From an uncultured Gammaproteobacteria bacterium (GTDB lineage: Bacteria; Patescibacteriota; Patescibacteriia; Patescibacteriales; UBA12075), in the NCBI GenBank assembly GCA_964539005.1, contig CAZIGB010000002.1:3024-38652 (forward strand): a DNA stretch of 35,629 nt, written 5' to 3'. The notes beneath the pieces were generated by a model. That model worked only from the letters and a program-made list of their open reading frames with translations, was not told the origin of the DNA and searched no databases. The first letter of the stretch is position 1. Each line of letters starts with the position of its first letter. A program made the position numbers and the translations under genes. Of this stretch, positions 6,275-35,295 are shown one piece after another.

Positions 6275-7339
6275 CTAATTTTTCTGGCGATTGTGTAGAG
6301 TGCAGCTATAGCAGTCTTTTTCTGTTTCGACTTTTTGGTTTGGGGCACACATGTGATTGCCAAAAATGATTTTGCGGCAATGATTATTTTTGTTCAATCG
6401 GTCGATGTCTGCTTGAGCTTCTATTAGCGAAAGATTGGAATAAAAACGCCTTTCGCAAGCGCTCGATGTTTCAATGATCGAGCTGATTTCTGGAAGATCA
6501 CGGATCATTATTAATTGAAAAATTTCGTGTTCAAGCCATTTTTGGGCAATCTGCTTGGCTGATCTGATCCCGTGATTTGATACTTTTAGTTTTTTGACAT
6601 CATGCGTGAGTGCTTTTAAGTCGATCTGACCACTGTCTGGTTTGCGATAGGGTAATTCTCTGCCTATTTTCCATTGAATAAAGCTTGATTCATCGCCGAA
6701 GGGAAGAATGTTGATGAGTTTTAGAGCATAGTTGGCGTACTTGTTTAAGAGGCAATGATAATAATCGTGCTCTTTCATGAGCTTACCGAGGGCATATTTA
6801 TCAATGCCAAGCTCAAAGGGGTCATCATTCCATTCCAGATAACGGATCATCTGCTTCAACTGTATCCACGAACCGAGCAAAGGAGCGTTTTGCTGGAATA
6901 TTATCCGGTTTGCGAGCCTCAAATAGTCTTCTAATCTTTGATCGTAGTGGCGATATTGCCAGAGGTAATAGGTAGTAGCGATAATTGCTTGTATTTGTTC
7001 CTGCTGGTATTTTGGGTTTGTACTGGCTTCGGAGAGATATATCTTGTCGTATAGGCTTTTCACTAGTTCATAGTCTAGAATATGGCCATTCTGACAGATT
7101 GTTCCAGGCTGGAGATCAGAACAGTGAGGGATAAAATGAAGGATATTGGCCAGGTAGGAATAGTCGAGATCAGGGGCGCCGAAGACAGAGATTAGCTCGA
7201 TTATTTCTGATCTTTTTGGTAATAAATGAGGAGTTGTTGATATCTTGGTTTCTGGGGAGTTAGGGCGCACATGGCCGCTTCGGTATTTATTTTTGAGTTC
7301 GAGTCTTCGTTCTTGGCGGTCTGGATCATTTTTGTTCAT
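6275..7339 (-). CDS. hypothetical protein with a C-terminal Cys/His cluster
   Basis: The ORF track gives 6275-7435. I prefer the internal ATG at 7339 because AGGAGAAAAATAAA precedes it (MNKNDPDRQERR...). The C-terminus is HCRKIIFGNHMCAPN...CYSCTLH, which looks zinc-binding. No family recognised. Confidence 0.6.
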   Translation of the reverse strand: MNKNDPDRQERRLELKNKYRSGHVRPNSPETKISTTPHLLPKRSEIIELISVFGAPDLDYSYLANILHFIPHCSDLQPGTICQNGHILDYELVKSLYDKIYLSEASTNPKYQQEQIQAIIATTYYLWQYRHYDQRLEDYLRLANRIIFQQNAPLLGSWIQLKQMIRYLEWNDDPFELGIDKYALGKLMKEHDYYHCLLNKYANYALKLINILPFGDESSFIQWKIGRELPYRKPDSGQIDLKALTHDVKKLKVSNHGIRSAKQIAQKWLEHEIFQLIMIRDLPEISSIIETSSACERRFYSNLSLIEAQADIDRLNKNNHCRKIIFGNHMCAPNQKVETEKDCYSCTLHNRQKN

Positions 7340-7514
7340 TTTATTTTTCTCCTGGATTTTGAAGGAACAAACGGTTATTTCTGAGATGTTTACATTTTTG
7401 TTTTTAGATGTCAAGGAGGCGCTTTGGGTGGACATTTTGTTTTGTGGCGCCCGCTTCCATAGTCGGGGATGAATGTGTTATAATAAGCAGGTAAGAATTT
7501 AGCATGTTGATATT

Positions 7515-8915
7515 ATGAGGAAAAAGCTTAAAATGCTTTCTTTGGTGCTTGTTTTTGTCCTTCTTTCAGGGGCAAGCTGTAAGGTTCAGGATAAGAGCGT
7601 GACTCAAAAAATGGAATCAGTCAAGCTGACTTATTGGCGGGTTTGGGATGGGCCGGATACTTTTAGCGCGATTATCAACAAATATCAGGAAAATCATCCT
7701 TTTGTAAAGATCGAATATAAGCTTTTGCGTTATGAAGAATATGAGCAGAAATTACTGGAAGCTTTTGCAAGCGATCGCGCTCCGGATATTTTTTCTATAC
7801 ACAATACTTGGACCAGGAAATATCATAATCGAGGTTGGCTGAAGGAAATGCCGGCCGAGACTACAATGGTCTATCCGGAAGTGAAAGGCTCGATCAAGAA
7901 AGAAATCGTTCCGACTTTACGCAAGAATCCGAGTCCTTCGCTCAATGAAATCCGAAGCCGATATGTCGATACGGTTTATGATGATGTAGTCATAAAAGGC
8001 AAAGACGGGAAGACGGGTGTCTATGGCCTGCCAATGGGGGTGGACACCTTGCTCATGTTTGTTAATCGGGATCTTTTCAATAATGCCGGCATCACCAGTA
8101 TTCCTGAGTATTGGAACAAGGAGTTCCAGCAAACAGTCCGCAGGCTAACCAAGATGGACAACAAGGGACAGATAATCCAATCGGGTGTAGCTCTCGGAGT
8201 GGGTGGGAATATCGATCGATCTAGCGATATATTGTCTATCCTCATGATGCAGAATGGGGCAGAAATGATGAACTTGGAAAATACGCTCGTCACTTTTAAT
8301 GCTCCCCCGATCGGTATCACGGATAAATCCAAGATACCAGGTGAAGACGCGCTACGCTTTTATAGCGATTTTGCTAATCCGGCTAAGGAAATCTACGCTT
8401 GGAACAATACTATGGATAATTCGCTTGATCTTTTTATCCGGGGCAAGCTGGCGATCATGTTCGGCTATAGCTATATGATGCCACAGATCAAGGCTGGTAA
8501 TCCAAAGATGAACCTGGTTATCAGTCGTCTGCCTCAGATCGAGGGTAATGACCCGGTTAATTTTGCGAATTATTGGGTGGAAACCGTGGCTTCAAAGAGC
8601 AAGCATCAGAATGAGGCTTGGGATTTTATCAAATTTGCGACCGCTGCTGAACAAGTCCCGAATTATCTGGAAGCCACCAAAAAATTGTCAGCCATTAGGA
8701 CCTTGGTCGAATATCAGAAGCAGGACTTAGAGGTCGGTCCTTATGCTGATCAGGTGCTTACAGCCAAGAGCTGGTACAAGGGTAATGATGCGGGGGCAGC
8801 GGAAAAAGCGATGCGTGATATGATGGATAGTGTTGCCAAGGGCGAGGTGGCTATCAAAGAGGCGATCGGCGCGGCCGTCTCCAAGGTGCAGCAGACGGTT
8901 GATGCTGAATTTTAG
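7515..8915 (+). CDS. ABC transporter extracellular solute-binding protein (family 1, sugar-type), probable lipoprotein
   Basis: 466 aa with a signal peptide ending LLSGASC (lipobox-like). The size and sequence style (WRVWDG.., PDIF.., YGLPMGVDTLLMFVNRDLF) are typical of SBP_bac_1 proteins. No permease or ATPase gene is adjacent. Confidence 0.8.
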   Translation: MRKKLKMLSLVLVFVLLSGASCKVQDKSVTQKMESVKLTYWRVWDGPDTFSAIINKYQENHPFVKIEYKLLRYEEYEQKLLEAFASDRAPDIFSIHNTWTRKYHNRGWLKEMPAETTMVYPEVKGSIKKEIVPTLRKNPSPSLNEIRSRYVDTVYDDVVIKGKDGKTGVYGLPMGVDTLLMFVNRDLFNNAGITSIPEYWNKEFQQTVRRLTKMDNKGQIIQSGVALGVGGNIDRSSDILSILMMQNGAEMMNLENTLVTFNAPPIGITDKSKIPGEDALRFYSDFANPAKEIYAWNNTMDNSLDLFIRGKLAIMFGYSYMMPQIKAGNPKMNLVISRLPQIEGNDPVNFANYWVETVASKSKHQNEAWDFIKFATAAEQVPNYLEATKKLSAIRTLVEYQKQDLEVGPYADQVLTAKSWYKGNDAGAAEKAMRDMMDSVAKGEVAIKEAIGAAVSKVQQTVDAEF

Positions 8916-8934: not shown

Positions 8935-9339
8935 ATGATGAAGAGATTCAATTATATTGTCGGAACGATCGTGCTTGTTTTTGCTTTTGCCAAAGAAACA
9001 TTGGCCTGGGATGAGAACTTGCATCTGGTCCCTGATAAGGGCAAGGAGAATGGCGATTATCAGCTTAGTGATTTTGTCTTGGTCGCATTAACGGTAGCCA
9101 AGATGATTCTGGCTGTATCGGGCGCGATGGCGGTCCTTGCTTTTGTCTGGGGTGGTTTTATGTTTGTCTTTTCGGCTGGTAATAAGGAGCGAGTCGAAAA
9201 AGGGAAGACCTCACTTATTGGTGGAGTAATCGGACTGGCGATAGTGCTCCTAGCTTATACCGCGGTTGATTTTTTCCTCAAGAGTCTAGGCTGGACAGAT
9301 GGAAACGAAGATTTTGGCAAATGGAACGCGGTTGACTAA
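8935..9339 (+). CDS. TrbC/VirB2-like small pilin paralog (P0)
   Basis: 134 aa with a signal peptide (..KETLA/W), a variable segment, TM1, the loop WGGFMFVFSAGNKERVEKGK, then TM2 (IGGVIGLAIVLLAY). This is the same architecture as the 15.9-18.9 kb array. Confidence 0.75.
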   Translation: MMKRFNYIVGTIVLVFAFAKETLAWDENLHLVPDKGKENGDYQLSDFVLVALTVAKMILAVSGAMAVLAFVWGGFMFVFSAGNKERVEKGKTSLIGGVIGLAIVLLAYTAVDFFLKSLGWTDGNEDFGKWNAVD

Positions 9340-9349
9340 AGATTGGATT

Positions 9350-10027
9350 ATGAATTTGTTTGAAAAAAAACCGATTATTGAGAGCTCTCAAGTCATTGCC
9401 CGAGAGCTTAGACAGGCGCGCGAAACACGCGGTCTTTGTTTGGCTGAAGTTGCGGAAATACTCAAGATGAATGTAAATTATTTGGAAGCAATGGAATGCG
9501 GAAATTTTTCATTACTGCCAACCGGTATCTATAAAGTTAATTTTCTTCGGGAATATGTCTTGTTTCTTGGTTTGCCACTGGAAGAGTTTTTGGATCTTTT
9601 TGAAGATAGCCAACGAGGTCAGAATATTCTTCGGGAAGAGGATTTGTTCGTGCGAAAAGCAGGTAATGTGCATTTCTCATTGACGATTCCCAAGTTAATC
9701 AAGAATTTGCTTATCTTTTCAGCTTCAGCCGTCTGTTTGACCTATTTGGCATTGAGTATCAATGACATAGTGGCTCCCCCGGAGCTTAGTATTGATTCCC
9801 CCTCACTTGATACGATAACCGAAGAAAAAGAGATCATGGTCCGGGGAACGACTGTGCCCGAGGCTGAAGTCCACATCAATGACGAACTGGTCCTGGCTGA
9901 CAAGAGCGGTGTATTCGAAAAAAAGGTAGAATTGCGGAGTGGCTTGAATACGATCGTAATCAGTGCCCAGAAAAAATATAGCCGAGTCAGCGAGCAGGTA
10001 AAGAAAGTGCTTGTTTCTGGGGGCTAA
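9350..10027 (+). CDS. RodZ-like HTH (XRE-type) bitopic membrane protein
   Basis: I chose the start at MNLFEKK (9350), which avoids overlap with the upstream gene. The N-terminal HTH is LRQARETRGLCLAEVAEILKMNVNYLEAMECGNFSLLP. A single TM follows (LLIFSASAVCLTYLALSI), then an extracytoplasmic beta-rich domain. Confidence 0.65.
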   Translation: MNLFEKKPIIESSQVIARELRQARETRGLCLAEVAEILKMNVNYLEAMECGNFSLLPTGIYKVNFLREYVLFLGLPLEEFLDLFEDSQRGQNILREEDLFVRKAGNVHFSLTIPKLIKNLLIFSASAVCLTYLALSINDIVAPPELSIDSPSLDTITEEKEIMVRGTTVPEAEVHINDELVLADKSGVFEKKVELRSGLNTIVISAQKKYSRVSEQVKKVLVSGG

Positions 10028-15792: not shown

Positions 15793-15821
15793 TTGTGGAA
15801 TATTGCTGATTATGGTAAAAT
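15793..15821 (+). promoter_or_regulatory. candidate promoter of the pilin operon (TTGTGG-17-TAAAAT with TG extension)
   Basis: -35 at 15793-15798, a 17-nt spacer and -10 at 15816-15821, preceded by TGg. It lies about 100 nt upstream of the first pilin ATG. Confidence 0.45.
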
Positions 15822-15920
15822 TTAGGAAATGTTAATAACTAATCTTTTCAAGCCATGAATTAAGAAGTCATGTAATGATTCCTTGATAATGGTTTGAAAT
15901 AAATAGAATGGGGGTGAATT

Positions 15921-16376
15921 ATGACTAAACAAATTTTGAAAAAAGCATCATCACTGCTTATCGTAATGGTATTTGCTTTTTCGTTAGTTCTTGTTTCGAA
16001 TGTTTCAGCTCAGGTTGGTCAGGGTATCGGATGGGATACTCAATCAGGTAGTGCCAATCAGACCACTTGGGGTAATACAGCTGAAAACATTCAGCAAAGA
16101 GCAGCCCTTGGTAATGATGATCCTCGCAATATCGCGGCTAATGTCATCAATATCATCTTGGGTTTCCTTGGTATTTTGGCAGTTGTCCTCATCCTCTATG
16201 GCGGATTCAAATGGATGACCGCGGCCGGCAACGAAGATAAGGTTTCAGAAGCTAAAAAGCTGCTGGTCGCTGGTGTGATCGGTTTGATAATTATCTTAGC
16301 TGCCTTTGCTCTCTCTACCTTTATTCTTGACGCCGTCTTCCGTGCTACTACTTCAGGAGAGTATATTGAGCCATAA
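15921..16376 (+). CDS. TrbC/VirB2-like small pilin paralog P1
   Basis: 151 aa with a signal peptide (..NVSA/Q), a variable G/N/Q/T-rich segment, TM1 (INIILGFLGILAVVLILYGG), the loop FKWMTAAGNEDKVSEAKK and TM2 (VIGLIIILAAFAL). GGGGGTG lies upstream of the ATG. Confidence 0.85.
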   Translation: MTKQILKKASSLLIVMVFAFSLVLVSNVSAQVGQGIGWDTQSGSANQTTWGNTAENIQQRAALGNDDPRNIAANVINIILGFLGILAVVLILYGGFKWMTAAGNEDKVSEAKKLLVAGVIGLIIILAAFALSTFILDAVFRATTSGEYIEP

Positions 16377-16394
16377 TAACCGAAATATTTTTTT

Positions 16395-16419
16395 GGGCTC
16401 GAGATTATGTTTCGAGCCC
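16395..16419 (+). promoter_or_regulatory. GC-rich intercistronic hairpin after the first pilin gene
   Basis: GGGCTCGA (16395-16402) pairs with TCGAGCCC (16412-16419) across a 9-nt loop. A T-run precedes the stem but none follows it, so this is not a canonical terminator. Confidence 0.4.
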
Positions 16420-16474
16420 ACTCCCTTGCTTCTAGATTTTGCTAGCGGCAGAGGAGTTAAATAATAAAAATACT

Positions 16475-16870
16475 ATGTTTTTCAAAAGAATACTAGCCTC
16501 TTTGTTGATTATTTTTTCTTTCGCTGTTTGTCAGCCGCTTTTAGCGCAGAGCGGAGAGGGTGGATCGGATGCGCGCCTTTGGGGCGGTTATGCGGATGAT
16601 ATTCGGGATACTACTGGCTTAGGGGAGGATGATCCTCGTCATATCGCCGCTAATATTATCAATATCATCCTTGGTTTCCTTGGTATCATTGCGCTTGTTT
16701 TGATTATTTATGCTGGATTTAAGTGGATGACAGCGGCTGGAAATGAGACCCAGGTAGGTGACGCTAAAAAATTACTAGTAGCAGCTGTTATTGGGTTAAT
16801 AATTATTCTTTCTGCATTTGCCTTGTCATCGTTCGTGCTGGATGCGGTATATCGGGCTACAACCGATTAG
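16475..16870 (+). CDS. TrbC/VirB2-like small pilin paralog P2
   Basis: The track ORF starts at a TTG at 16439. The ATG at 16475 (MFFKRILASLL..) gives a proper signal peptide (..LLA/Q). The core IINIILGFLGIIALVLIIYAGFKWMTAAGNETQVGDAKKLLVAAVIGLIIILSAFAL is closest to P1. Confidence 0.85.
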   Translation: MFFKRILASLLIIFSFAVCQPLLAQSGEGGSDARLWGGYADDIRDTTGLGEDDPRHIAANIINIILGFLGIIALVLIIYAGFKWMTAAGNETQVGDAKKLLVAAVIGLIIILSAFALSSFVLDAVYRATTD

Positions 16871-16880
16871 CTGAAATTAG

Positions 16881-17294
16881 ATGTTCAATCACACAAAAAA
16901 GTTTTATCTAAGATCATTACTCTCTGCTTTTATCCTTAGTCTGATGGGTTTTGCCTTTGTGGCACAGGCTAGTGATTCGACCGTAAAGGGCTTGGATGAA
17001 GCAGCTGGCAAGGCCAAGATCGGCAAGGAAAGCAAGATGGTCCAGGACATCCCGTCGGCGATCGGCCGGGTCATCGGAATTGTCCTCTCTTTTATCGGTC
17101 TGGCTTTTTTTGTGCTGATGGTCTATGGCGGGGTAATCTGGATGTTTGCCAGAGGTAATGACCAGGAAGTAAGCAAAGCCAAAGATCTTATCCAATCAGC
17201 AATCATCGGTCTGATCATTGTCTTGTCTGCTTATGCTCTCACTATCTTTGTCGGCAATGCCTTGACAAGCGGCGCGGTGACTGGCCCGAATTAA
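16881..17294 (+). CDS. TrbC/VirB2-like small pilin paralog P3
   Basis: 137 aa with a signal peptide (..VAQA/S) and the core VYGGVIWMFARGNDQEVSKAKDLIQSAIIGLIIVLSAYAL. Confidence 0.8.
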   Translation: MFNHTKKFYLRSLLSAFILSLMGFAFVAQASDSTVKGLDEAAGKAKIGKESKMVQDIPSAIGRVIGIVLSFIGLAFFVLMVYGGVIWMFARGNDQEVSKAKDLIQSAIIGLIIVLSAYALTIFVGNALTSGAVTGPN

Positions 17295-17295
17295 T

Positions 17296-17685
17296 ATGTT
17301 GATCCGATACTTGCTAGCTTTTTCACTTTCATTTATTCTCATTGCTTCTTTTTTTGCCATTCCGGTTTCTGCTTTTAATTTTGAATCCCATAGCGGTATC
17401 AAGAACACTGGCTCTGCGGCTGGCTATGACGCGGCAAACCTGACTGATGTTTCTTTTTCGCAGACAGTCGGCAAGATTATCCGGATCCTTCTTTCGCTCA
17501 TCGGTGTTTTCTTTTTTCTCCTTTTCTTATATGCTGGTTTTATCTGGATGCTTTCGCGCGGCAATACCCAAGATATTGAAAAGGCAAAGAAGATTATGCA
17601 GAATGCCCTTATCGGTTTGATTGTCGTATTGATGGCTTATGCTATTACGGTATTTGTCACTCAAGCAATTACCCGCGCAGTTTAA
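17296..17685 (+). CDS. TrbC/VirB2-like small pilin paralog P4
   Basis: 129 aa with a signal peptide (..PVSA/F) and the core LYAGFIWMLSRGNTQDIEKAKKIMQNALIGLIVVLMAYAI. It starts 1 nt after the P3 stop. Confidence 0.8.
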   Translation: MLIRYLLAFSLSFILIASFFAIPVSAFNFESHSGIKNTGSAAGYDAANLTDVSFSQTVGKIIRILLSLIGVFFFLLFLYAGFIWMLSRGNTQDIEKAKKIMQNALIGLIVVLMAYAITVFVTQAITRAV

Positions 17686-17689
17686 TCTT

Positions 17690-18097
17690 ATGTTCCGAAA
17701 ATATTTTTTTCATTTATCAGTCTTGGTTCTTGTTTTGGGCTTTTTTTCTTTCTTTTTTTTGACTAGCGCTAGCGCGCAAAATCTGACCGACTGGAAGGGG
17801 GTCCTGGATGATGGGGCCGGTGCAGGCGGAGCAGGCTACAAGACAGAGCTGACTTCACCCGAGCCGGTAATCGGTGTTGTTATCAAGACTTTATTGTCTC
17901 TACTTGGCGTCCTCTTTTTGATCCTGATGATTTATGGCGGTTTTACTTGGATGACGGCCATGGGCGGGAATGAGAAGGTTGAAAAGGCCAAGAATACGAT
18001 TACGGCGGCTGTTATCGGTCTGATCTTGGTTCTGGTTTCTTATGCGGTCAGTTATTTTGTAATAAAAGCCTTGACGGGTGCCACTCTGTCTTTCTAA
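17690..18097 (+). CDS. TrbC/VirB2-like small pilin paralog P5
   Basis: I chose the ATG at 17690 (MFRKYFFHLSVLVL..), which avoids overlap with P4. The signal peptide ends ..SASA/Q and the core is IYGGFTWMTAMGGNEKVEKAKNTITAAVIGLILVLVSYAV. Confidence 0.8.
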   Translation: MFRKYFFHLSVLVLVLGFFSFFFLTSASAQNLTDWKGVLDDGAGAGGAGYKTELTSPEPVIGVVIKTLLSLLGVLFLILMIYGGFTWMTAMGGNEKVEKAKNTITAAVIGLILVLVSYAVSYFVIKALTGATLSF

Positions 18098-18108
18098 AAA
18101 TAATCCTT

Positions 18109-18495
18109 ATGCAGAAAATTTTCCGCTCATTCCTCTCCGCTCTGATCCTGGCCTTTGTCCTGATGTTGCCGGCTCTAGCCCTGGCAAATCCGAGTCCGGA
18201 TGGACCGCTTGGTAAGCTGAATAAGACGGCCAAAGAAAGCGGCTTTAATGATAATGCGGCTAATATTTCTTTGCCCGCGGCAGTTGGCAAAGTGATTAGC
18301 ATGCTACTCGGTCTTTTAGGTGTCATCTTTCTCGGTCTGATAATCTATGCCGGTATAATGTGGATGATTGCCGCCGGTGACGAGAGCAAGGTTACCAAGT
18401 CCAAAGACACGATGAAGCGGGCAATTATCGGCTTGATCATAGTGGTCGGCGCTTATGCGATCAGCCAATTCGTCGTTTATACATTAGCCGGTTAA
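18109..18495 (+). CDS. TrbC/VirB2-like small pilin paralog P6
   Basis: 128 aa with a signal peptide (..ALALA/N) and the core IYAGIMWMIAAGDESKVTKSKDTMKRAIIGLIIVVGAYAI. Confidence 0.8.
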   Translation: MQKIFRSFLSALILAFVLMLPALALANPSPDGPLGKLNKTAKESGFNDNAANISLPAAVGKVISMLLGLLGVIFLGLIIYAGIMWMIAAGDESKVTKSKDTMKRAIIGLIIVVGAYAISQFVVYTLAG

Positions 18496-18499
18496 GCTT

Positions 18500-18922
18500 A
18501 TGAAGAAACTTAGCACTATAATCTATTCATATCTTTTTATATCTTTGTCTTTTGCTTTTGCGGGTATTGCCAGGGCTAATCTCCTCAATACCGAAGGGCA
18601 GACCGCGATTAAGGATAATATGAAAGGCGCGGGCGATAAAGGCGGCTACAACACAGCTGGCGGTGACGGCTCGTTTATCTTTTCTACGGTGGCGGGCAAG
18701 GTCGTGGCAGCGGTTCTCGGACTTTTGGGCATCATCTTCCTGATCATGATTATAATCGCTGGTTTCAATTGGATGACAGCGGCCGGTGATGCTGGCAAGG
18801 TCGATAAGGCCAAGGCTACCATTTTCCGCGGGGTAATCGGTCTGATCATCGTCGTTACGGCTTATATCATAACCGCTTTTGTCTTCAAAGCTTTGTCCGG
18901 ATTAGTCGGCTCACCTGGTTAA
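18500..18922 (+). CDS. TrbC/VirB2-like small pilin paralog P7
   Basis: 140 aa with a signal peptide (..GIARA/N), a Gly-rich variable segment and the core IIAGFNWMTAAGDAGKVDKAKATIFRGVIGLIIVVTAYII. Confidence 0.8.
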   Translation: MKKLSTIIYSYLFISLSFAFAGIARANLLNTEGQTAIKDNMKGAGDKGGYNTAGGDGSFIFSTVAGKVVAAVLGLLGIIFLIMIIIAGFNWMTAAGDAGKVDKAKATIFRGVIGLIIVVTAYIITAFVFKALSGLVGSPG

Positions 18923-18941
18923 GAATATTCTTTTTTTCAAT

Positions 18942-18975
18942 AAAAAGAAGCGGCTATCAGGATAGCCGCTTTTTG
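18942..18975. terminator. strong bidirectional terminator closing the pilin operon
   Basis: aaaaagaagcggctatc/gatagccgcttttt gives an 11-bp stem flanked by an A-run and a T-run. It lies between convergent genes. Confidence 0.8.
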
Positions 18976-18986: not shown

Positions 18987-19427
18987 CTATTGACACTGAG
19001 AAACATCTATTGTCAGATAATCCCGTGTCTGAAGATGATTCCAGGAGTCGACATAGTAAAGATCGTCTCGAGGCGAGGGTGGGATGGCGATGACCTTGGT
19101 CCGGCTCGAAATGATGAGCCGGTCGTGGTAGTCGATTACCCGCGCTTTGTGGGGTACGTATTGGTTCCAGCCGATTTCATGAGTTCCCATCCGGAGCTGA
19201 GCTTTGTAGCATTGGCGTGGCGCCAGGGTGAGGCCAGCCAGGGCGCCGTCAAAGAATTCGACACCGCCGAAAGAATTGTTTACGACGTAGACGACTACAC
19301 CGCCGTGGTAATCTTCGGCAATGAATTGTACGGGGGCCTTTTCGTAGACTACGTGCCCGCAAGCACTCAAGGCCATTGCAACAAATACCAGAACGCTCGC
19401 GAATACGGACTTCTTTGCTTTTTTCAT
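18987..19427 (-). CDS. hypothetical lipoprotein
   Basis: I prefer the start at MKKAKKSVFASVLVFVAMALSAC because AAGGAGAGAAAA precedes it, and the lipobox L-S-A-C is canonical. The mirror ORF on the plus strand (18981-19466) has no such features. Confidence 0.65.
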   Translation of the reverse strand: MKKAKKSVFASVLVFVAMALSACGHVVYEKAPVQFIAEDYHGGVVVYVVNNSFGGVEFFDGALAGLTLAPRQCYKAQLRMGTHEIGWNQYVPHKARVIDYHDRLIISSRTKVIAIPPSPRDDLYYVDSWNHLQTRDYLTIDVSQCQ

Positions 19428-28503: not shown

Positions 28504-29088
28504 ATGAATAAGATTAGGGTGATATCTTTTTTTGTCTGTATGACGATTTTATCCGCTTGCGGTAACAACACACCCGGAGAGAGGGAGGAGCTAATAGAAA
28601 AAAGCTGGTCTGAAATGCATTCGGCTTATCAGAAAAGAGCTGAGCTGGTACCTGATCTGGTCGGAGTCGTTCAGAATTATGCAGCTGATAAAAGAGATGT
28701 ATTCGTTGCGGTTATCGAAGCACGGGCAAATCTTTTGACGGCTGAGACGGATAGCAGCGCCGATGCGGAAAAGGCTAATAAATTTGTCGCTAAGCAGAAG
28801 GAGCTTTCTGTGAAGCTGGTTAAGCTCATCGCATTAGCGGAAAAAAATCCGGTGATCAAGGCTGATGCAAACTTCAAACGTATTCACAGTGAGCTGGCAA
28901 CAGTCGAGGGCCAGATCGTGTCTGCTCAGAAGAGGTATGTGTCGGCAATCAAAGATTATAATGAATCGATCCAGGCCTTTCCGGCTAATTTGACCGCCAA
29001 AACGCTCGGTCATGAAGCCAAGAAGACGCTGGCAGTCCAAGATGGGGGAGCGACTAAAAGGGCGCCCCAGCTTAACATCGTCAGATAA
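28504..29088 (+). CDS. LemA family protein, lipoprotein-anchored (LemA-1)
   Basis: 194 aa with the signal plus lipobox ILSAC. LemA landmarks are W....S.YQKR.EL.P.LV..V..YA..E..VF..V.EAR and Y...I.DYN..IQ.FP.NL.AK.LG. The SD is AAGGAGA, and the gene starts 24 nt after the NYN gene. Confidence 0.85.
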   Translation: MNKIRVISFFVCMTILSACGNNTPGEREELIEKSWSEMHSAYQKRAELVPDLVGVVQNYAADKRDVFVAVIEARANLLTAETDSSADAEKANKFVAKQKELSVKLVKLIALAEKNPVIKADANFKRIHSELATVEGQIVSAQKRYVSAIKDYNESIQAFPANLTAKTLGHEAKKTLAVQDGGATKRAPQLNIVR

Positions 29089-29110
29089 TCTTCTATGCCA
29101 ATCTTGTCAG

Positions 29111-29138
29111 GGTCCGATCTTTGGTCGGACCTTTTTTT
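29111..29138 (+). terminator. rho-independent terminator after LemA-1
   Basis: ggtccgatctttggtcggaccttttttt. Confidence 0.8.
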
Positions 29139-29375
29139 GTTTTCTGATAATGAGATCGCTATCTGGTGCTTTGCTAGTGTTGAATGATGAAACAGAGAGG
29201 AGAAGATGATACGGGTCTCTTTTTGGCTTGGAAGCTTGATCAGGGGATGATTGAGTTCAAATAAGCACCACTCAATTGTTTGGTGATTAATTTTTGTCTA
29301 ATTTTAAATATAATAATCGATATTCTGATCAAAGGCGTAAATTTTGGCCCAAAATAAGGTTGATTAGCGGGATAA

Positions 29376-29404
29376 TTGACATTTTGTCAATAATATGCTA
29401 AAAA
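29376..29404 (+). promoter_or_regulatory. promoter TTGACA-17-TAAAAA (TG-extended); the -35 box is half of the palindrome TTGACAtttTGTCAA
   Basis: -35 at 29376-29381 and -10 at 29399-29404, preceded by TGc. The inverted repeat TTGACA/TGTCAA spans 29376-29390. Confidence 0.55.
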
Positions 29405-29493
29405 CTGAGAATGTTTAAGTGGTTTTTGTTCATTTACAATTGATCTGTCCGATTGAATTACTGGTCAAATCCATGAAAAAAAAGGAGGAAGTC

Positions 29494-29946
29494 ATGGAAG
29501 GGAAAAAAAGAGTGATCTCGGTCGCAGTGTTAACAGCTCTTTTGGGTTCACTGACGGCTTGCGATTATGATCCGAATGTCAGCGCGCAAAGAGATGTTTA
29601 TTCCAGAATCGAAGATTGTGTGGCTGATTGGGGCGATATGGCCCTGTGTCAGCAAATGGATGAAACTGCCAAAAAAGAATTGGAAGAGGAAAAGGTCAAA
29701 AACAATTCTTCAGGCGGTGGTGGCAGCTTTGTTTATCTCGGTCACCCTTTTTATGGACCCACCTATTACGGTAGCCAAAGGGTTGCCTATGTCGGTGATC
29801 GGGAAGTAGCCGCCAAGGGTTTCCGAGCAGCTAGCACAAAGTCAACTTTTGTCAGGTCTTCAACAATACCCTCAAAGATTTCAGCACGAGCTGGTCTGGG
29901 GGCAACTGGAAGATCAATGAGCCGTTTCTCCGGCATGGGAGCTTGA
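29494..29946 (+). CDS. DUF1190 (YjfM-like) lipoprotein
   Basis: I chose the start at MEGKKRVISVAVLTALLGSLTAC because AGGAGG lies 5 nt upstream, and the lipobox is L-T-A-C. YSRIEDCVADWGDMALCQQ matches the E. coli YjfM segment Y..REDCVAEFGEGQCQQ as I recall it. The C-terminal RAGLGATGRSMSRFSGMG resembles the YjfM C-terminus. Confidence 0.75.
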   Translation: MEGKKRVISVAVLTALLGSLTACDYDPNVSAQRDVYSRIEDCVADWGDMALCQQMDETAKKELEEEKVKNNSSGGGGSFVYLGHPFYGPTYYGSQRVAYVGDREVAAKGFRAASTKSTFVRSSTIPSKISARAGLGATGRSMSRFSGMGA

Positions 29947-29947
29947 A

Positions 29948-31114
29948 ATGGAAAGAAAATTATTCCGGGAGCGAGGCAATTGGAAGAAGCGTTGTGAAGA
30001 CTCGGGCTTTCTTTTTCACACGATAGAAGGAGAGCGATATTGGCAGGAGGGAGTCGCTTATTGTTTTTCTCTCCAAGAAATCGACGCCATAGATGACGCA
30101 ACCCTTGAACTTCACTCCATGTGCATTAGCCATGTGGAAGAGGTCGTGAAAAGTGGCGATTATGAAGGTTACTCTTTTCCGGATTGGGCTAAATCAATGA
30201 TCGAGTCCTCCTGGAAAAAAAAGGATCCGCATATCTATGGTCGCTTTGATTTCTGCTTTCGAGACAATGAGATCAAGCTCCTCGAGTATAATGCTGATAC
30301 GCCGACTTCTTTGTTGGAGGCCGCTGTTATCCAGTGGAACTGGCTCGAAGATCTGGAACTACCTGATCAATTCAACAGTATTCATGAGAAACTAATTGAA
30401 AGGTGGCAACGGATTTCGGATCGATTGCCCCTTGGCCAAAAGATATATCTGTCTACGATCAAGGAGGCGGGAGATGAAGATTGGGGAAATCTGAGCTATC
30501 TTGCAGAAACGGCGGTTCAGGCCGATAAGGACTGCTCGCTGATCAACCTTGAGGATATCGGTTGGCAAGAAAAGGGACGGTACCACAGCGATATATTCGA
30601 CAATCCGATTGTCGCCCTTTTCAAGCTGTATCCCTGGGAATGGTTATTGCAGGACGATATTTATGGGAATCTGGCTAAGTCGAGCACGCTTTTTCTTGAG
30701 CCGGCTTGGAAGATGCTTCTTTCAAATAAAGCCTTGCTGCCACTTCTCTGGAAGAAACACCCGGATCATCCGTTCCTATTGCCAGCATATTTCGAAAGTG
30801 AAAACAAGGAAGTGTGCAAAAAGGGCAAGTGGGTGCGTAAGCCCTGTCTTGCCAGAGAGGGCTCCAATATCTCACTGTTTGAAAATGGCCGTTCCGTTTC
30901 CTTGTCTGGGTCAAGTTTTGTCCCGGCCTATGATGCTGATTATGTCTTGCAGCAGTGGTGCGATTTTCCGTCATTTGACGGCTGGCATCCAGTCATCGGG
31001 TCATGGGTTGTCGGTGACGATACGGCTGGCATCGGTATTCGAGAAGACAAAGGTTTAGTGACTGGAAATTCCAGTTGTTTCGCCCCCCACTACTTTGAGG
31101 AGAGAATAAGATGA
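29948..31114 (+). CDS. glutathionylspermidine synthase-like ATP-grasp amide ligase (YjfC-like; no CHAP amidase domain)
   Basis: 388 aa. The N-terminus R.RGNWKKRCEDSGFLFHTIEGERYWQEGVAYCFSLQEIDAIDDATLELHSMC is characteristic of the GSP_synth pre-ATP-grasp family. So are YGRFDF..........LLEYNADTPTSL.EA and LEPAWK.LLSNKALLPLLW. It starts 1 nt after the DUF1190 stop. Confidence 0.85.
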   Translation: MERKLFRERGNWKKRCEDSGFLFHTIEGERYWQEGVAYCFSLQEIDAIDDATLELHSMCISHVEEVVKSGDYEGYSFPDWAKSMIESSWKKKDPHIYGRFDFCFRDNEIKLLEYNADTPTSLLEAAVIQWNWLEDLELPDQFNSIHEKLIERWQRISDRLPLGQKIYLSTIKEAGDEDWGNLSYLAETAVQADKDCSLINLEDIGWQEKGRYHSDIFDNPIVALFKLYPWEWLLQDDIYGNLAKSSTLFLEPAWKMLLSNKALLPLLWKKHPDHPFLLPAYFESENKEVCKKGKWVRKPCLAREGSNISLFENGRSVSLSGSSFVPAYDADYVLQQWCDFPSFDGWHPVIGSWVVGDDTAGIGIREDKGLVTGNSSCFAPHYFEERIR

Positions 31115-31500
31115 ATGCGGCTATATCTTTGTGGTTGTTTCTGGTGTATTTCGTGTCTGGCGTATCGATGCTTTGGCTTTTTGCGAAGCTCTATATGTAC
31201 GTTACTCCCTATGATGAAATACAGGAGATCAAAGACGGAAAGAAAGCGCCAGCGATAGCCTTGGCAGGGGCGATGATCGGTTTTGTTTTGCCCATTGCTT
31301 CAATGTCCTATCACAGTGTCGCATTTCTGGATTATGTTTTTTGGAGTTTTATTGCGGGTTGCTTACAGTTGGCTTGTTTCAAGTTTTTGTATCGATTCTT
31401 GCCTCGAGAAATCGAGAGCGACAATCAAGCTGTCGCGATTTTCTACGCAGGCGCATCCATCTGTATCGGCGTGATAAATGCTTTTTCTCTCATTCCTTGA
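31111..31500 (+). CDS. DUF350 (YjfL-like) membrane protein
   Basis: 129 aa with 4 TMs. The pattern Y.YVTPYDE...I.....APAIALAGAMIGFVLPIAS......FLDYVFW.....C.QL..F.......P..IE.DN.A.A....G.S.C.G..NA matches YjfL as I recall it. The start overlaps the ligase stop (ATGA), which suggests translational coupling. Confidence 0.8.
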   Translation: MNAAISLWLFLVYFVSGVSMLWLFAKLYMYVTPYDEIQEIKDGKKAPAIALAGAMIGFVLPIASMSYHSVAFLDYVFWSFIAGCLQLACFKFLYRFLPREIESDNQAVAIFYAGASICIGVINAFSLIP

Positions 31501-31513
31501 AGGAGGATTTCTG

Positions 31514-32107
31514 ATGTTGTATTCCTCGCAAAAAATATTTACTTTTTTTGTCGGACTTTGTCTCATCTCTTCTTTATCTGCCTGTGGCTATAACACCCTC
31601 GAGCAGCGGGATGAAAGAGTGAAGATGTCTTGGTCGCAGTTACAGTCTGTTTATCAGAAAAGGACAGACTTGATTCCGAATCTCGTGAAAGTTGTCCAGG
31701 CCTATGCGGCGCATGAACGTAGCGTGTTTGTCGCCGTCACAGAAGCACGGGCAAAGGCTTCGGTCCATGACGCAAAATTGGGCAACGATGAAGGGAAAAA
31801 CAGCAAGTTTCTTGAGTCGCAAAAGGAGCTTTCTGCCGGATTGTCACGGCTGATCGTTGTCGCTGAAAATTATCCGCAGCTCAAAGCGGATCAAAATTTT
31901 CAACATCTCCAAGCGGAGCTGGTGCAGATCGAAAATCAGATCGTGGCGGCCAGAAATCGTTATACCCGGGAAGTGATGCAGTACAACAATGTTGTCCGCT
32001 CCTTTCCCACAAGTCTCACAGCTAAGGTTTTTGGACATCAGGTCAAAAATCAGCTCAGCGTTGAAGACGAAGGGGCGATTAAAAGGCCCCCGGAAATTAA
32101 GCTCTGA
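31514..32107 (+). CDS. LemA family protein, lipoprotein-anchored (LemA-2)
   Basis: I chose the start at MLYSSQKIF because GAAGGAGG lies upstream, and the lipobox is L-S-A-C. It shares the LemA landmarks of LemA-1 (WSQLQSVYQKRTDLIPNLV, YNNVVRSFPTSLTAKVFGH). The two paralogs are clearly related but diverged. Confidence 0.85.
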   Translation: MLYSSQKIFTFFVGLCLISSLSACGYNTLEQRDERVKMSWSQLQSVYQKRTDLIPNLVKVVQAYAAHERSVFVAVTEARAKASVHDAKLGNDEGKNSKFLESQKELSAGLSRLIVVAENYPQLKADQNFQHLQAELVQIENQIVAARNRYTREVMQYNNVVRSFPTSLTAKVFGHQVKNQLSVEDEGAIKRPPEIKL

Positions 32108-32125
32108 ACAAATGAGCGAACAACA

Positions 32126-32154
32126 CGGCCCAAGCATCTGCTTGGGCCGTTTTT
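32126..32154 (+). terminator. rho-independent terminator after LemA-2
   Basis: cggcccaagcatctgcttgggccgttttt. Confidence 0.85.
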
Positions 32155-32336
32155 CTATATTTAGGTTCTTTGACATATTTTATGGGTAAAGATTTGAAAA
32201 ATGGGAGTGGCCAAAAGTCATCCCAGGGAGTTTGAATAAGCGGTTTGTAAAAAGTAGCCCAACTACACTTTCTTTTGTTTTGTAAAAGAAAAAGCCAGTA
32301 CTTGAGTAAAGCAACTGGCTCGTGTGTTTTTGTCTG

Positions 32337-32561
32337 TTATTTTTTTCTATAAAATACCCAATCCCTATGACACATTGTGTTGCAGCTTATCCATGTAACA
32401 TCGTAGTCGCAATTGAAGTCAGGGTAGGGCAAATCAAATTCCCGATGCTCAATGTTTGTAGCTAGCTCTTGTAATCGGGTTCTTTCCGTCTCCGTTGAAG
32501 TTTTCGCTTTTTTACGGAGAAAATTTACCAATTGTCCTTTTGTCCAGAAGCAGTAAGTCAT
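32337..32561 (-). CDS. hypothetical small Cys/Trp-rich protein
   Basis: 74 aa with a good SD (CAGGAGAAATACC before the ATG), located in an AT-rich segment. No family recognised. Confidence 0.5.
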   Translation of the reverse strand: MTYCFWTKGQLVNFLRKKAKTSTETERTRLQELATNIEHREFDLPYPDFNCDYDVTWISCNTMCHRDWVFYRKK

Positions 32562-32934
32562 GGTATTTCTCCTGTAAGAAATTTAGGATTGTTAACTAAG
32601 GATTGTTGGGACTTAGAAGTGGAATTTTACATGTTTCCTCTCACAAGTTATTTTTAAAGAGCATTATTGATTAAGGCGTGATATTTCCCATTGTCTCATG
32701 ATTTCACTTGGACGATCGTCTATAAAGGGGATTTTTTTTCATCGTTTTATCCCTTTTGAGTAGTAATGAACATTTCCTTCCTTTGATAACCATACTATAA
32801 CACAAACAGCCTATAATGTAAATTATAAGCCACAAAAAGACGAATAATGTTATTTTATACAAATATATTTGCTTAATAATAAATAATAAGCTATACTTAA
32901 ATATGTAAATAAATTACGACAATAGCATAATATA

Positions 32935-33675
32935 ATGATCGATTATTCTATTTTTAAAAGCTTCGGCCTAAGCGATAAAGAAGCCATGATTTATCTATAC
33001 ATCCTGGCAAATACCAGCACTGGTGCAAGCGAAATCGAGAAAGGCACGGGAGTAGGGCGGACATATATTTATGACATTGCGGAAAAATTGATTGATAAAG
33101 GATTTTTGAGGCAGTCACAGAAGGAGAAGAAAAAAGTTTTTATTGCCGTATCGCCAAAAGAGCTACTATCTAATCAGAAAAAATTACTTTCAGATTTTGA
33201 AAACAATTTAAAAGCGCTGGAGGAGCTTGAGAAAAAAGATTTACAGAAGCCGGAGATAGTTTATTATTCTGGCAAAAAAGAGTTGGCGAGCATGATGGAG
33301 AATTTTATCTCGCGCTCGATAGATAAGGAGGCAGTCGCCTTTAGTGATGATTCATTCTATACAGTCGAACAAGGCGAACACCAAGAAAAGGAAATTAACA
33401 AGCGCCTTAAGCAAGGCGTATTCTTTCGCGCTTTAGCCCCGATGTCTATAGCCGTAATCAAATCGAAGAAAAGAGATAAAGAGGAAAATAGAGAGACTAG
33501 AATGCTCCCAAGGGATGGATTTGATCTAAAAGTTATGTTGGGGGCGCACGGGTCAAAGACAGTGGTCGTGAATTATAAAAAGGACTTTGCTTTTGTGGTG
33601 GAGGATAAGGACTTGGCGGATACAGTTAAAGAGCTGTTTAATTTCATTTGGAAGAGTGGGAAAATATTGGAATAA
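32935..33675 (+). CDS. TrmB-family-like wHTH transcriptional regulator
   Basis: 246 aa. The N-terminus F.SFGLSDKEAMIYLYILANTSTGASEIEKGTGVGRTYIYDIAEKLIDKGFL is typical of TrmB-type wHTH proteins. A coiled linker and a ~130-aa C-terminal domain follow. Confidence 0.65.
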   Translation: MIDYSIFKSFGLSDKEAMIYLYILANTSTGASEIEKGTGVGRTYIYDIAEKLIDKGFLRQSQKEKKKVFIAVSPKELLSNQKKLLSDFENNLKALEELEKKDLQKPEIVYYSGKKELASMMENFISRSIDKEAVAFSDDSFYTVEQGEHQEKEINKRLKQGVFFRALAPMSIAVIKSKKRDKEENRETRMLPRDGFDLKVMLGAHGSKTVVVNYKKDFAFVVEDKDLADTVKELFNFIWKSGKILE

Positions 33676-33742
33676 ATCAGCGGATTTTTATATTTTGGAT
33701 AATACAAAAACTCCCTTTCGAAAAGGAGTCGTTTTTGTTTTA

Positions 33743-33810
33743 TTGGTGGGTGAGGGGGGAACGAATCTCTCTCCAATATGGAAAGTTGCTACAAAAAAAT
33801 ACTATACCTG
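33743..33810 (-). pseudogene. decayed tRNA-Gly-like sequence (ghost copy, cannot fold)
   Basis: Manual alignment to the tRNA-Gly at 35336-35408 gives collinear blocks in the same orientation: gggtRagggg, cgaa, ctctctcca, tggaa, aaaaa, tactataccYgc. The TTCCA anticodon-loop remnant is kept, but the 5' half of the T-stem is deleted. Confidence 0.45.
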
Positions 33811-34000
33811 CTCCCATTAAGTCGTAACTTCAGAAAATTATAGCTGTTATTGTCCCGGTGTTATAGGCACTTTAAAGGTTGGTAAAATATATATTATCGA
33901 TTCCCTTTTGCGCGATTGTGCGTTTTGCATAGCATCTGTCAGTTATTGGCAAGAGTTGCGCTTTATGCGAGTAAGTTAACGATTTTATTAATAAACTCTA

Positions 34001-35023
34001 TTACAAAATGTTTGCCAATCCTCTTTTAATCATAGACTCAACTTCAGCATTAGCTCTAACATATTTAATTTTTATCCCAGGATTTTCATTTGCAAAAACG
34101 CGGAAAATCTCATCAACAAAAGCCTGCCCGACAGAGTTAACATTGTTGAAATCCAGCACTACGGTTTTGAATTTTTCTAAGCCCATCATAAGCCTTTTTG
34201 CCTGTGATCTTGAAACGTGCGGGTCATTTGGATCAGAGCTAAGCGAAACAGCAACAATTGTTTTGTCAAAACCTAAATTTTGATCCGTAAAACGATCCAT
34301 TACTTCTTTTGTGGTTCTAGTTGTATCCAGGGACAGGTTCATGTTTATCAAAGTGCCTTGACCGAAACTCTCAGGCTTCTCTTTTGAGAGAAACCACTCA
34401 TCACCCTTAAACTGATAATACAAATCAGTTGATAATATTGAGAAACTATCAAAAACCCTTGAAGTAAAAAATATTCCTTCGCCAGAATGCCTCGATGGGT
34501 CAGTTGTAAACTTGCCCTTTGATAAATGCAACAAAGACTCGCGAGCAGATTCAAGCTTCAGTGCTTCCTGAATCTTTTTGAAAATTCCGATTCCATCATC
34601 AATAATGCATATCTCAATTGCATTGTTTTTTATTTCGACTTCAGTAAAAATATTCTTACCTCCAGAATGATCAATGGCATTGTTAAACATCTCAGTAAAT
34701 CCGTATGCAACAATCTGTTTTATGTTATTACTGTATTCACTGAGCATTGGTTTGATGTATTTTGACCAAATTTTGTCTTCGGCAAGCTCGGAATTTATTT
34801 TACAGCTGAAATTTATTTTTTTACTACCAACAAGAAAATATTTTGTTGACTTTGTTCGGCCTATTTTAATAATCTTTCCATTTTTAATTTCTTTTGAAAG
34901 ATGTTTATGGGCTGTCTGCCTTGAAAAACCAAATTCATTGGCCAAGACATTGCTAATATCCTCTGGATGATTAACTATTTTTTCATAAATAAATTCTTTA
35001 ATTTTAGCAGTTTTATTTTTCAT
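34001..35023 (-). CDS. fused wHTH + GHKL (RsbW/SpoIIAB-like) ATPase + STAS-like (DUF4325-type) protein
   Basis: 340 aa. The N-terminal wHTH is FGFSRQTAHKHLSKEIKNGKIIKIGRTKSTKYFL. GHKL boxes are N (FNNAIDHSGG), G1 (IIDDGIGIF) and G2 (HSGEGIFFTSRVF). The C-terminal ~90 aa (VVLDFNNVNSVGQAFVDEIFRVF...) resemble the STAS-like DUF4325 module. Confidence 0.7.
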   Translation of the reverse strand: MKNKTAKIKEFIYEKIVNHPEDISNVLANEFGFSRQTAHKHLSKEIKNGKIIKIGRTKSTKYFLVGSKKINFSCKINSELAEDKIWSKYIKPMLSEYSNNIKQIVAYGFTEMFNNAIDHSGGKNIFTEVEIKNNAIEICIIDDGIGIFKKIQEALKLESARESLLHLSKGKFTTDPSRHSGEGIFFTSRVFDSFSILSTDLYYQFKGDEWFLSKEKPESFGQGTLINMNLSLDTTRTTKEVMDRFTDQNLGFDKTIVAVSLSSDPNDPHVSRSQAKRLMMGLEKFKTVVLDFNNVNSVGQAFVDEIFRVFANENPGIKIKYVRANAEVESMIKRGLANIL

Positions 35024-35110
35024 ATTATTTATTTCTAAAGTTTATTTTTTTTATTGTAAACTAAATTTTGTTTATTGTCAACTATAATATAATTATTGTA
35101 AACATCTTGA

Positions 35111-35140
35111 GCTAAAATTAAAATAACCTCTTGCGAGGTT
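35111..35140 (-). terminator. hairpin plus T-run following the orphan tRNA-Gly 3' fragment
   Basis: The minus strand reads aacctcgcaagaggtt followed by attttaatttt. Confidence 0.5.
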
Positions 35141-35151
35141 GCTTTAATTTG

Positions 35152-35173
35152 TGAGCGGGTAAGGGGAATCGAA
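35152..35173 (-). repeat. exact 22-nt duplicate of the tRNA-Gly 3' end (att-like scar)
   Basis: tgagcgggtaaggggaatcgaa is identical to 35334-35355, in direct orientation 182 bp away. The flanks are also related (gctttaatttg versus gctttatct). Confidence 0.85.
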
Positions 35174-35295
35174 GAGGCGGAAGCCCCACACCGTTATAGC
35201 CCAGCGAAGGGAGGTTTTTTTATAATATTTCTAATACTAATGTCTAATGGTTTTATTGTTGTATTATCAGTAGGCATTCTCGCCACTCTACCCAC

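Follow-up and report, generated by a model that had tools for sequence, protein, structure and literature searches.

We propose that the seven tandem genes lying between 15921 and 18922 of the 35,629-nt (35.6 kb) stretch of DNA analysed here (the window, on which all positions are counted) encode non-redundant pilus subunits of a type IV secretion system (T4SS), probably served by machinery that is encoded elsewhere in the chromosome of their carrier, an ultrasmall bacterium of the class ABY1 of the Patescibacteria (candidate phyla radiation, CPR). The seven genes (P1 to P7) form a chromosomal operon and, together with a solitary eighth paralog in the window (P8), most likely code for pilins that resemble VirB2 and belong to the Patescibacteria type (Pfam T4SS_pilin), as judged from their sequences. 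The locus is a regular example of the VirB2-like pilin arrays already published from Patescibacteria. Mildly novel here are an architecture of seven paralogs in fixed order, the separation of the arrays from virB4 throughout ABY1, a close relative that is listed as VirB4-negative, and a partner gene encoding a solute-binding protein (SBP).

By hydropathy, each product consists of an N-terminal hydrophobic signal followed by two more hydrophobic helices, with AxA-type sites (VSA/Q, LLA/Q, AQA/S, VSA/F, ASA/Q, ALA/N and ARA/N in P1 to P7, respectively); the assignment of signal peptides is based on this hydropathy and on a cleavage motif kept in orthologs. The AlphaFold2 (AF2) model of P1 has helices at residues 68-100 and 105-144 with a predicted local distance difference test score (pLDDT) above 90, preceded by a low-confidence N-terminal segment. 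In the protein alignment L80, G84, G95, G103, K112 and I120-G121-L122 (P1 numbering) are invariant, and the basic loop of the pilins, [AG]G.xWMxAxGN...KxK, is highly conserved. In Pfam hidden Markov model (HMM) searches all eight proteins score 30.3-40.4 bits against PF18895 (T4SS_pilin), above its gathering threshold of 26.6 bits. TrbC/VirB2 (PF04956) is matched below threshold by five of the eight, with E values of 3.3e-5 to 6e-3 for P1, P2, P6 and P8 and of 0.11 for P5. When a 56-sequence family alignment was compared by hhalign with VirB2 of A. tumefaciens (query identity checked against PDB 8CUE), the two aligned with a probability of 75.9% and an E value of 2.3e-5 over 55 columns, placing the DP before helix 1, the ILG..G in helix 1, the terminal G..WM and helix 2 in register. 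P1 and P5 also reach the 40-bit cutoff of NF045849, the Mbov_0395 family of pilin-like conjugal transfer proteins from Mycoplasma integrative and conjugative elements (ICEs), at 42.9 and 40.4 bits, and P7 falls under it at 31.4 bits. A family search returned more than 1,500 matches, with PF18895 on all but one of the 120 matches listed and with Patescibacteria, Parcubacteria or Falkowbacteria as the source wherever one is named. An initial annotation, made from the sequence alone, had proposed both the shared plan of a signal peptide with an AxA site followed by a hairpin and membership of the VirB2/TrbC-like T4SS pilin family, with Pfam searches as a check; hydropathy and AF2 agree on the plan, and the family assignment holds, with PF18895 passed by all eight proteins and a TrbC similarity that is sub-threshold yet in register.

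An open reading frame (ORF) listing places all seven array genes on the plus strand, with products of 128-151 amino acids (aa) at the most plausible starts and with gaps from P1 to P7 of 98, 10, 1, 4, 11 and 4 nt, in that order (Table 1). P2 is taken as 131 aa, the length at which it is called on independent contigs, and a TTG at 16439 offers an alternative start that would give 143 aa; the longer P5 ORF of 152 aa, from 17639, would overlap P4. P1 alone has a clear Shine-Dalgarno sequence (GGGGGTG), and it is also the best-conserved member of the array, with orthologs 60-75% identical. Scanning the window with an HMM built from the family found no further copies beyond the eight, and Rfam and tRNA scans of the window found nothing within the operon and only two tRNAs, at 35.3-35.5 kb. 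The closely spaced same-strand ORFs, the strong bidirectional terminator and the eighth paralog of the initial annotation were thereby all recovered, by the ORF listing, the terminator scan and PF18895, respectively; the promoter-like element that it placed upstream is visible in the sequence but weak, matching the -35 hexamer at only 3 of 6 positions and missing from the output of the consensus scan. Taken together, the array genes have the appearance of a tightly coupled operon that ends in one terminator and is free of internal switches.

The position of this operon has been kept over considerable evolutionary distance. The block of ychF (reverse), pilin array, small reverse lipoprotein gene and ftsH recurs in five other genomes, where the array comprises eight genes in GCA_002869165.1 and seven in each of GCA_054039075.1, JGI Ga0645779_04113, GCA_054029735.1 and a landfill strain (L092, about 97% identical to the window), such that copy number, counting the seven of the window, is near constant at 7, 7, 7, 7, 7 and 8; the sequence of GCA_054039075.1 ends just past the lipoprotein gene, and ftsH is thus not visible there. 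The order ychF, array, ftsH, trmD, khpA is shared by at least six genomes, the upstream order SBP, pilin, HTH_25, RecA is also kept in GCA_002869165.1, GCA_054029735.1 and the landfill strain, and P8 is found at the matching position in loci L004, L011 and L092. Housekeeping proteins of the window are 66-89% identical to those of the four more distant genomes, with YchF at about 70%. GCA_002869165.1 is classified as ABY1, and homologs are named Falkow-, Uhr-, Magasanik- or Komeilibacteria or simply Patescibacteria, all in keeping with the CPR origin assumed at the outset. The organism is present in bioreactor, wastewater, digester and landfill metagenomes.

From this gene order we conclude that the array is chromosomal and stable at a fixed site between ychF and ftsH. 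The alternative of an integrated mobile element with ordinary conjugation pilins has as its sole support the family resemblance to VirB2/TrbC and to the pilin-like protein of the Mycoplasma ICEs, and is close to refuted by housekeeping flanks kept in at least six genomes, by GC content that is even across the array, by a window without integrase, relaxase or type IV coupling protein (T4CP) genes, and by the recovery of no homologs among 72,556 plasmids.

Within this fixed site the individual genes also keep their places. Genes at the same position in three other genomes are 43-75% identical and those at other positions about 25-40%; P1 and P2 cross-match across genomes at about 50-56%, and the extra eighth gene of the eight-gene relative, GCA_002869165.1, is of the P1/P2 type. 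Between paralogs the N-terminal segments are 22% identical and the cores 47%, and between orthologs the corresponding values are 43-53% and 65-74%, with the proportion of non-synonymous differences (pN) between orthologs at 0.33-0.40 in the N-terminal segments versus 0.17-0.23 in the cores, or about twice as fast. Paralog-specific N-terminal motifs are kept within the ortholog groups, as for QNLxDW...GAGY...SPEP in P5. Because synonymous sites are saturated between genomes (proportion of synonymous differences, pS, 0.7-0.8), the ratio of non-synonymous to synonymous substitution rates (dN/dS) is not usable there, and only the strain-level comparison of the window with the landfill strain (dS 0.06-0.11) is informative. 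In that comparison dN/dS is 0.23 for the signal peptides, 0.066 for the N-terminal segments (from the small counts of 3.5 non-synonymous versus 14.5 synonymous changes) and 0.031 for the cores, and it is 0.014-0.064 for RecA, YchF and the methyltransferase, which puts the N-terminal segments at the level of these neighbouring housekeeping genes. We therefore favour distinct, maintained functions over an interchangeable or rapidly diversifying repertoire, with positional orthology and N-terminal conservation together indicating that the seven paralogs are ancient, positionally fixed and individually conserved, and not interchangeable.

The same comparisons bear directly on the reading in which the array is an antigenic-variation or host-range repertoire of seven equivalent major pilins that differ in their exposed N-termini and are expressed alternately. 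The initial annotation had raised an interchangeable repertoire as a possibility, and the authors of a survey of Patescibacteria (Quinonero-Coronel et al. 2025, PMC12102498) likewise propose host-range or antigenic versatility. The low N-terminal identity between paralogs and the faster N-terminal divergence between orthologs speak for such a repertoire, as do the virB2 paralogs of Anaplasma and Bartonella, a precedent to which PMC12102498 refers. We nevertheless regard it as decidedly improbable, given the strict positional orthology and near-constant copy number in genomes whose YchF is only about 70% identical, the N-terminal motifs kept inside each ortholog group, the low strain-level N-terminal dN/dS, the undetected gene conversion between P1 and P2, and the tight single-terminator operon devoid of internal switches. 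The per-region dN/dS that the initial annotation had suggested computing (N-terminal segments 0.066, cores 0.031) hence counts against its own descriptions of those segments as hypervariable and of the array as possibly interchangeable; the segments do differ between paralogs, but they remain recognisable among orthologs, with one ortholog for each array position.

The closest pair of paralogs fits the same pattern. P1 and P2 are 55-65% identical, compared with 28-39% for other pairs of the array. In the DNA strings that the initial annotation had quoted from them, located at 16200 and 16712, 9 of the 36 bases differ, and the encoded peptides, GGFKWMTAAGNE and AGFKWMTAAGNE, show one amino-acid change. 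Since 60 of 75 core residues are identical, pS is saturated at 0.83, and both genes are found at the same positions in five other genomes, P2 is, on the sequence comparison, an old duplicate of P1 kept by purifying selection, as had been claimed.

A separate feature was seen at the 3′ end of P2 (16795-16867), where the window and the landfill strain show dense third-codon-position differences, nearly all of them synonymous. Gene conversion from P1 to P2 was considered as their cause and rejected, as only 9 of the 26 alternative alleles match P1, which is the level of chance.

Among the window ORFs of at least 100 aa, scanned with Pfam and NCBIfam, there is no VirB4, VirB6, T4CP, relaxase or prepilin peptidase; upstream of the array the scan identified a GH1 protein, an EamA transporter, Wzy_C, the SBP_bac_1 lipoprotein, an HTH_25/RodZ-like protein, RecA, EF-P, SSB, S6, a methyltransferase and YchF, and after it FtsH, TrmD, KhpA, a GGDEF protein, a DEAD helicase, LemA, a GSP synthase, DUF350 and TrmB, so that all the large ORFs scanned are housekeeping genes or have no relation to secretion. 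Five window ORFs match no Pfam or NCBIfam family, and none of them has a VirB4-type Walker A motif. We then considered arrays across ABY1 by scanning species-representative genomes with P1, which gave 80 loci, or 81 counting the window; those titles that name a lineage are all of ABY1 type save for one Saccharimonadales, and many others are labelled uncultured Gammaproteobacteria. The longest tandem run, again with the window counted, is six genes in 29 loci, seven in 11 and eight in 7, with a maximum of 12, and a size of 6-8 genes is thus the usual one in ABY1. Neighbouring proteins were clustered, and the recurrent clusters, along with unannotated Walker A ORFs of at least 400 aa, were searched with Pfam, yielding NTP_transferase, GT2, SMC, ComM, PPDK, LGT, MFS, IF-2, DnaA and a MoxR-like ATPase; one 607-aa Walker A ORF near the ABY1 arrays has no Pfam match and carries the motif at its extreme N-terminus. 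The absence of secretion machinery nearby that the initial annotation had remarked upon is correct for the window, but, with nothing recognisable within 10 kb of the 80 arrays, it is not peculiar to this locus and is the normal state in ABY1. Table S1 of PMC12102498 includes six of these array-bearing ABY1 genomes, each of them VirB4-positive, and that survey reports VirB4 in about 80% of Patescibacteria genomes. We consider it likely that the organism of the window carries VirB4 as well.

A second gene often accompanies the pilins in ABY1. An SBP_bac_1-family lipoprotein gene lies just upstream of P8 in the window, where no ABC permease or ATPase gene adjoins it, and SBP homologs occur in 50 of the 81 loci, in 47 of them on the same strand as a pilin gene and fewer than 300 nt ahead of it; no other neighbour of the pilin genes is as well conserved in ABY1. 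Three layouts of this adjacency exist in total, among them one in which the entire array follows the SBP gene, itself often preceded by an NTP_transferase gene, and one, seen in the window, in which SBP, one pilin and HTH_25 stand together and the main array is 2-7 kb away. As the adjacency persists while the other neighbours change, it suggests a functional link between SBP and pilin, though it could be an inherited gene order. The association is unmentioned in the available parts of PMC12102498, and no indexed paper joins VirB2, Patescibacteria and solute-binding. An HTH_25 / Glucodextran_B (RodZ-like) gene follows the P8-type pilin in about 20 loci, and its part in the system is uncertain.

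Several results weigh against the proposal that the array supplies subunits to a T4SS. The best PF04956 scores, 24.5 bits for P2 and 22.5 bits for P1, stay under the gathering threshold of 27.9 bits, and the score against the TrbC/VirB2 model NF010431 is 19.6 bits with a cutoff of 103 bits. Foldseek searches of PDB with full and mature AF2 models gave nothing significant, the best hit being ATP synthase subunit c at an E value of 0.8-1.3, and the top 50 contained generic hairpins and no pilin, a two-helix hairpin being too simple to discriminate; a profile search of PDB sequences likewise gave no real match, its sole one being a spurious match to the signal peptide, and the structural comparison is thus best taken as uninformative and not as a negative. 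Neither the window nor the 10-kb surroundings of the 80 related arrays contain a recognisable T4SS component, VirB4 included, and the closest syntenic relative, GCA_002869165.1 (1.43 Mb, 1,358 coding sequences), is VirB4-negative in Table S1 of PMC12102498. Of six RNA-labelled runs listed, the four compared with the region gave no more than two 151-nt contigs, covering 17055-17338 and belonging to a single library whose RNA status is doubtful, which makes them unusable as a sign of expression, and the available parts of PMC12102498, PMC10633639 and PMC12857230 record no filament seen in any Patescibacterium.

The structural results could mean that these are unrelated small membrane proteins whose pilin HMM matches stem from hydrophobic composition, a reading to which weak matches to FixQ, DctQ and DUF898 also lend themselves. 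It is highly improbable when set against eight of eight proteins above a curated threshold, non-hydrophobic motifs (DP before helix 1, G..WM, GN and K) in register with VirB2, and a family of more than 1,500 members that shares the same Pfam assignment in nearly all of the matches listed.

The genomic results could instead mean that the array is an orphan surface or membrane module that works independently of a T4SS and without VirB4, possibly together with the SBP_bac_1 lipoprotein, for instance as a scaffold or conduit capturing host carbohydrates. Besides the VirB4-negative relative and the lack of T4SS genes around the 80 arrays, this would accommodate the placement of the SBP gene next to a pilin, on its 5′ side, in 47 of 81 loci despite differing other flanks, and the fusion of the same hairpin to giant Ig-domain proteins, where it is anchor-like rather than a filament subunit. 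We judge it unlikely, however, as six array-bearing ABY1 genomes are VirB4-positive, the single VirB4-negative metagenome-assembled genome may be incomplete in a phylum where VirB4 is widespread, the pilins of Southlakia lie inside an essential T4SS cluster (PMC10633639), and SBP adjacency could be inherited gene order. A bolder variant, in which ABY1 pilins and the preceding SBP lipoprotein would form one surface module, appears quite unlikely to us. Here seven non-redundant hairpin subunits would make up a heteromeric filament or conduit that, together with an SBP lacking its own ABC transporter, would take up host carbohydrates or other molecules; in the lineage of the window such a module might work without VirB4, since the closest relative is listed as VirB4-negative.

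Subunits of a T4SS pilus with machinery elsewhere remain our preferred reading. PMC12102498 searched 3,035 Patescibacteria genomes with the same Pfam model and found 441 arrays, each of 2-11 VirB2-like genes and together spread over 383 assemblies, with a mean identity of 25% and a maximum of 54%; no more than 1,135 of 1,948 assemblies have a pilin gene close to virB4. The window array resembles these in its PF18895 matches, its tandem, same-strand, divergent paralogs of 125-150 aa, its chromosomal location in a monoderm phylum, the lack of a relaxase, its size of seven (eight with P8) and its contiguous genes, which fit the definition of an array used there (at least two PF18895/PF04956 genes, either in tandem or with one non-pilin gene between them). 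It differs in that the lineage is ABY1, where PMC12102498 stresses Microgenomatia and Saccharimonadia, and in that P1 and P2 slightly exceed the reported maximum identity; positional orthology, N-terminal purifying selection and the SBP neighbour are unmentioned in the available parts of PMC12102498, PMC10633639 and PMC12857230. The statement in the initial annotation that such pilins lack experimental characterisation is out of date, for a series of six pilins in the T4SS cluster of Southlakia epibionticum ML1 is essential for epibiotic growth by transposon sequencing (Tn-seq; PMC10633639). That cluster lacks a coupling protein and a relaxase and, unlike in the window, it contains its array (SEML1_0006-0019). 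A review, PMC12857230, speculates on a conduit for uptake from the host.

Further afield, VirB2 of Agrobacterium (8CUE, 8EXH) and TrbC of RP4 (PF04956) share with the window pilins an Ala-rich signal cleavage site, two helices and a short loop, and VirB2 also the in-register DP, ILG..G and G..WM. The window pilins differ from both in scoring below the PF04956 threshold, in a loop that is 8 residues longer and an extension before helix 1 that is 25-40 aa longer, in the absence of a linked virB operon, in their monoderm host and in numbering seven paralogs instead of one; nor is there evidence for their cyclisation. The Mbov_0395 family (NF045849), whose cutoff P1 and P5 reach, is likewise one of small hairpin proteins in a wall-less or monoderm MPF-FATA-type system, but it is single-copy on mobile ICEs, whereas the window locus is not mobile and P7 is under the cutoff. 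In Anaplasma phagocytophilum and Bartonella (cited in PMC12102498) several divergent virB2 copies similarly follow one another at a distance from some of the T4SS genes. Those, however, are diderm animal pathogens whose paralogs are thought to be antigenically variable, whereas the copies in the window are old, fixed and under purifying selection.

We picture the following sequence of events. Sec would export the precursors and signal peptidase I would cleave them behind the AxA site, leaving a mature protein of 100-120 aa in the membrane as a helical hairpin with both ends outward and the conserved basic loop in the cytoplasm, a topology for which VirB2 and TraA serve as analogues. A T4SS of monoderm type, powered by VirB4 and encoded elsewhere, would then extract the subunits and polymerise them into a pilus or conduit for contact with the host cell, as the genetics of Southlakia and the VirB4 of other array-bearing ABY1 genomes lead us to expect. 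The paralogs being ancient, fixed and individually conserved, each most likely has its own role, and the structure could consist of a major subunit (P1, or P1 with P2) with specialised minor, tip or initiating subunits, or could be a heteromeric filament. P1 is the candidate major subunit because no member is better conserved, because it stands first in the operon and because no other gene has a clear ribosome-binding site. In either arrangement the N-terminal segments, which are particular to each paralog, would lie on the exposed surface.

Table 1. Positions of the pilin genes and associated features in the window
Feature	Position	Strand	Description
SBP_bac_1-family lipoprotein gene	7515-8915	+	Pfam E 1.8e-27; lipobox-like N-terminus
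P8, solitary eighth paralog	8935-9339	+	134 aa; PF18895 35.5 bits; directly 3′ of SBP lipoprotein gene
HTH_25 / Glucodextran_B (RodZ-like) gene	9299-10027	+	Follows P8
Possible promoter	15793-15821	+	TTGTGG, 17 nt, TGgTAAAAT (extended -10); read from sequence; weak
P1	15921-16376	+	151 aa VirB2-like pilin; PF18895 40.4 bits; TrbC E 1.3e-4; NF045849 42.9 bits
P2	16475-16870	+	131 aa from ATG; PF18895 36.5 bits; TrbC E 3.3e-5
P3	16881-17294	+	137 aa pilin paralog; PF18895 32.1 bits; positional orthologs 51-53% identical
P4	17296-17685	+	129 aa pilin paralog; PF18895 36.8 bits; positional orthologs 43-52% identical
P5	17690-18097	+	135 aa from internal ATG; PF18895 30.3 bits; NF045849 40.4 bits
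P6	18109-18495	+	128 aa pilin paralog; PF18895 33.7 bits; TrbC E 4.7e-4; orthologs 51-57% identical
P7	18500-18922	+	140 aa pilin paralog; PF18895 33.8 bits; orthologs 52-58% identical
Intrinsic-terminator-like hairpin, bidirectional	18945-18974		13-bp stem, 4-nt loop, T-runs on both strands; terminator scan
Small lipoprotein gene	18987-19427	-	Lipobox LSAC; converges on array terminator; no Pfam family

The small lipoprotein gene that converges on the array was considered as a general partner of the pilins and rejected, its homologs being confined to the syntenic lineage and present in no other ABY1 locus. Elsewhere in the window, a tight same-strand cluster at 28504-32107 encodes two LemA proteins, DUF350, a small lipoprotein-like ORF and a protein resembling glutathionylspermidine synthase (PF03738, E 1e-131), a content that is unusual for a reduced CPR genome. 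Over 32000-35629 the GC content falls to 0.34-0.39, in a segment that encodes a TrmB-family regulator and a histidine-kinase-like ATPase with a DUF4325 domain and that may have been acquired; the genes for tRNA-Gly(tcc) and tRNA-Pro(tgg) lie at 35335-35511. Two minus-strand ORFs, 628-2055 (475 aa, with C-terminal membrane helices) and 6275-7435 (386 aa), belong to no Pfam or NCBIfam family and have no homolog among the related loci compared.

The pilin family itself takes several further forms in the related loci. The pilin-family HMM also matches giant proteins, 550-3,358 aa in length, in L034 (7118-9820 and 9860-15727), L042 (7687-9933 and 9965-20041), L087 (9875-11809 and 11822-18484), L068, L069 and L078, usually as a pair beside a HisRS gene and a Peptidase_S26 gene. 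The 900-aa protein of L034, the only one checked with Pfam, has the PF18895 hairpin near its N-terminus followed by a Big_5 Ig-like domain, and large surface proteins seem to have taken over the pilin hairpin as their anchor. Double-length pilins with two PF18895 stretches also occur (P0001-P0006, of about 250-263 aa, and L017 11030-11818), and in loci of Uhr- or Magasanikbacteria type (L047, L050, L051 and L073-L080) the pilins leading the array are 220-490 aa long, with extra N-terminal regions.

The T4SS of Patescibacteria, with its pilin array, is the only T4SS known to be essential to the bacterium that carries it. Paralogs that appear ancient, fixed and conserved make models of antigenic variation or interchangeable subunits unlikely and favour a heteromeric filament or one with division of labour. 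The ABY1 array, uncoupled from virB4, would offer a clean system for learning how pilins find their machine. Finally, the conserved SBP lipoprotein may provide a concrete candidate for the purpose of the structure.

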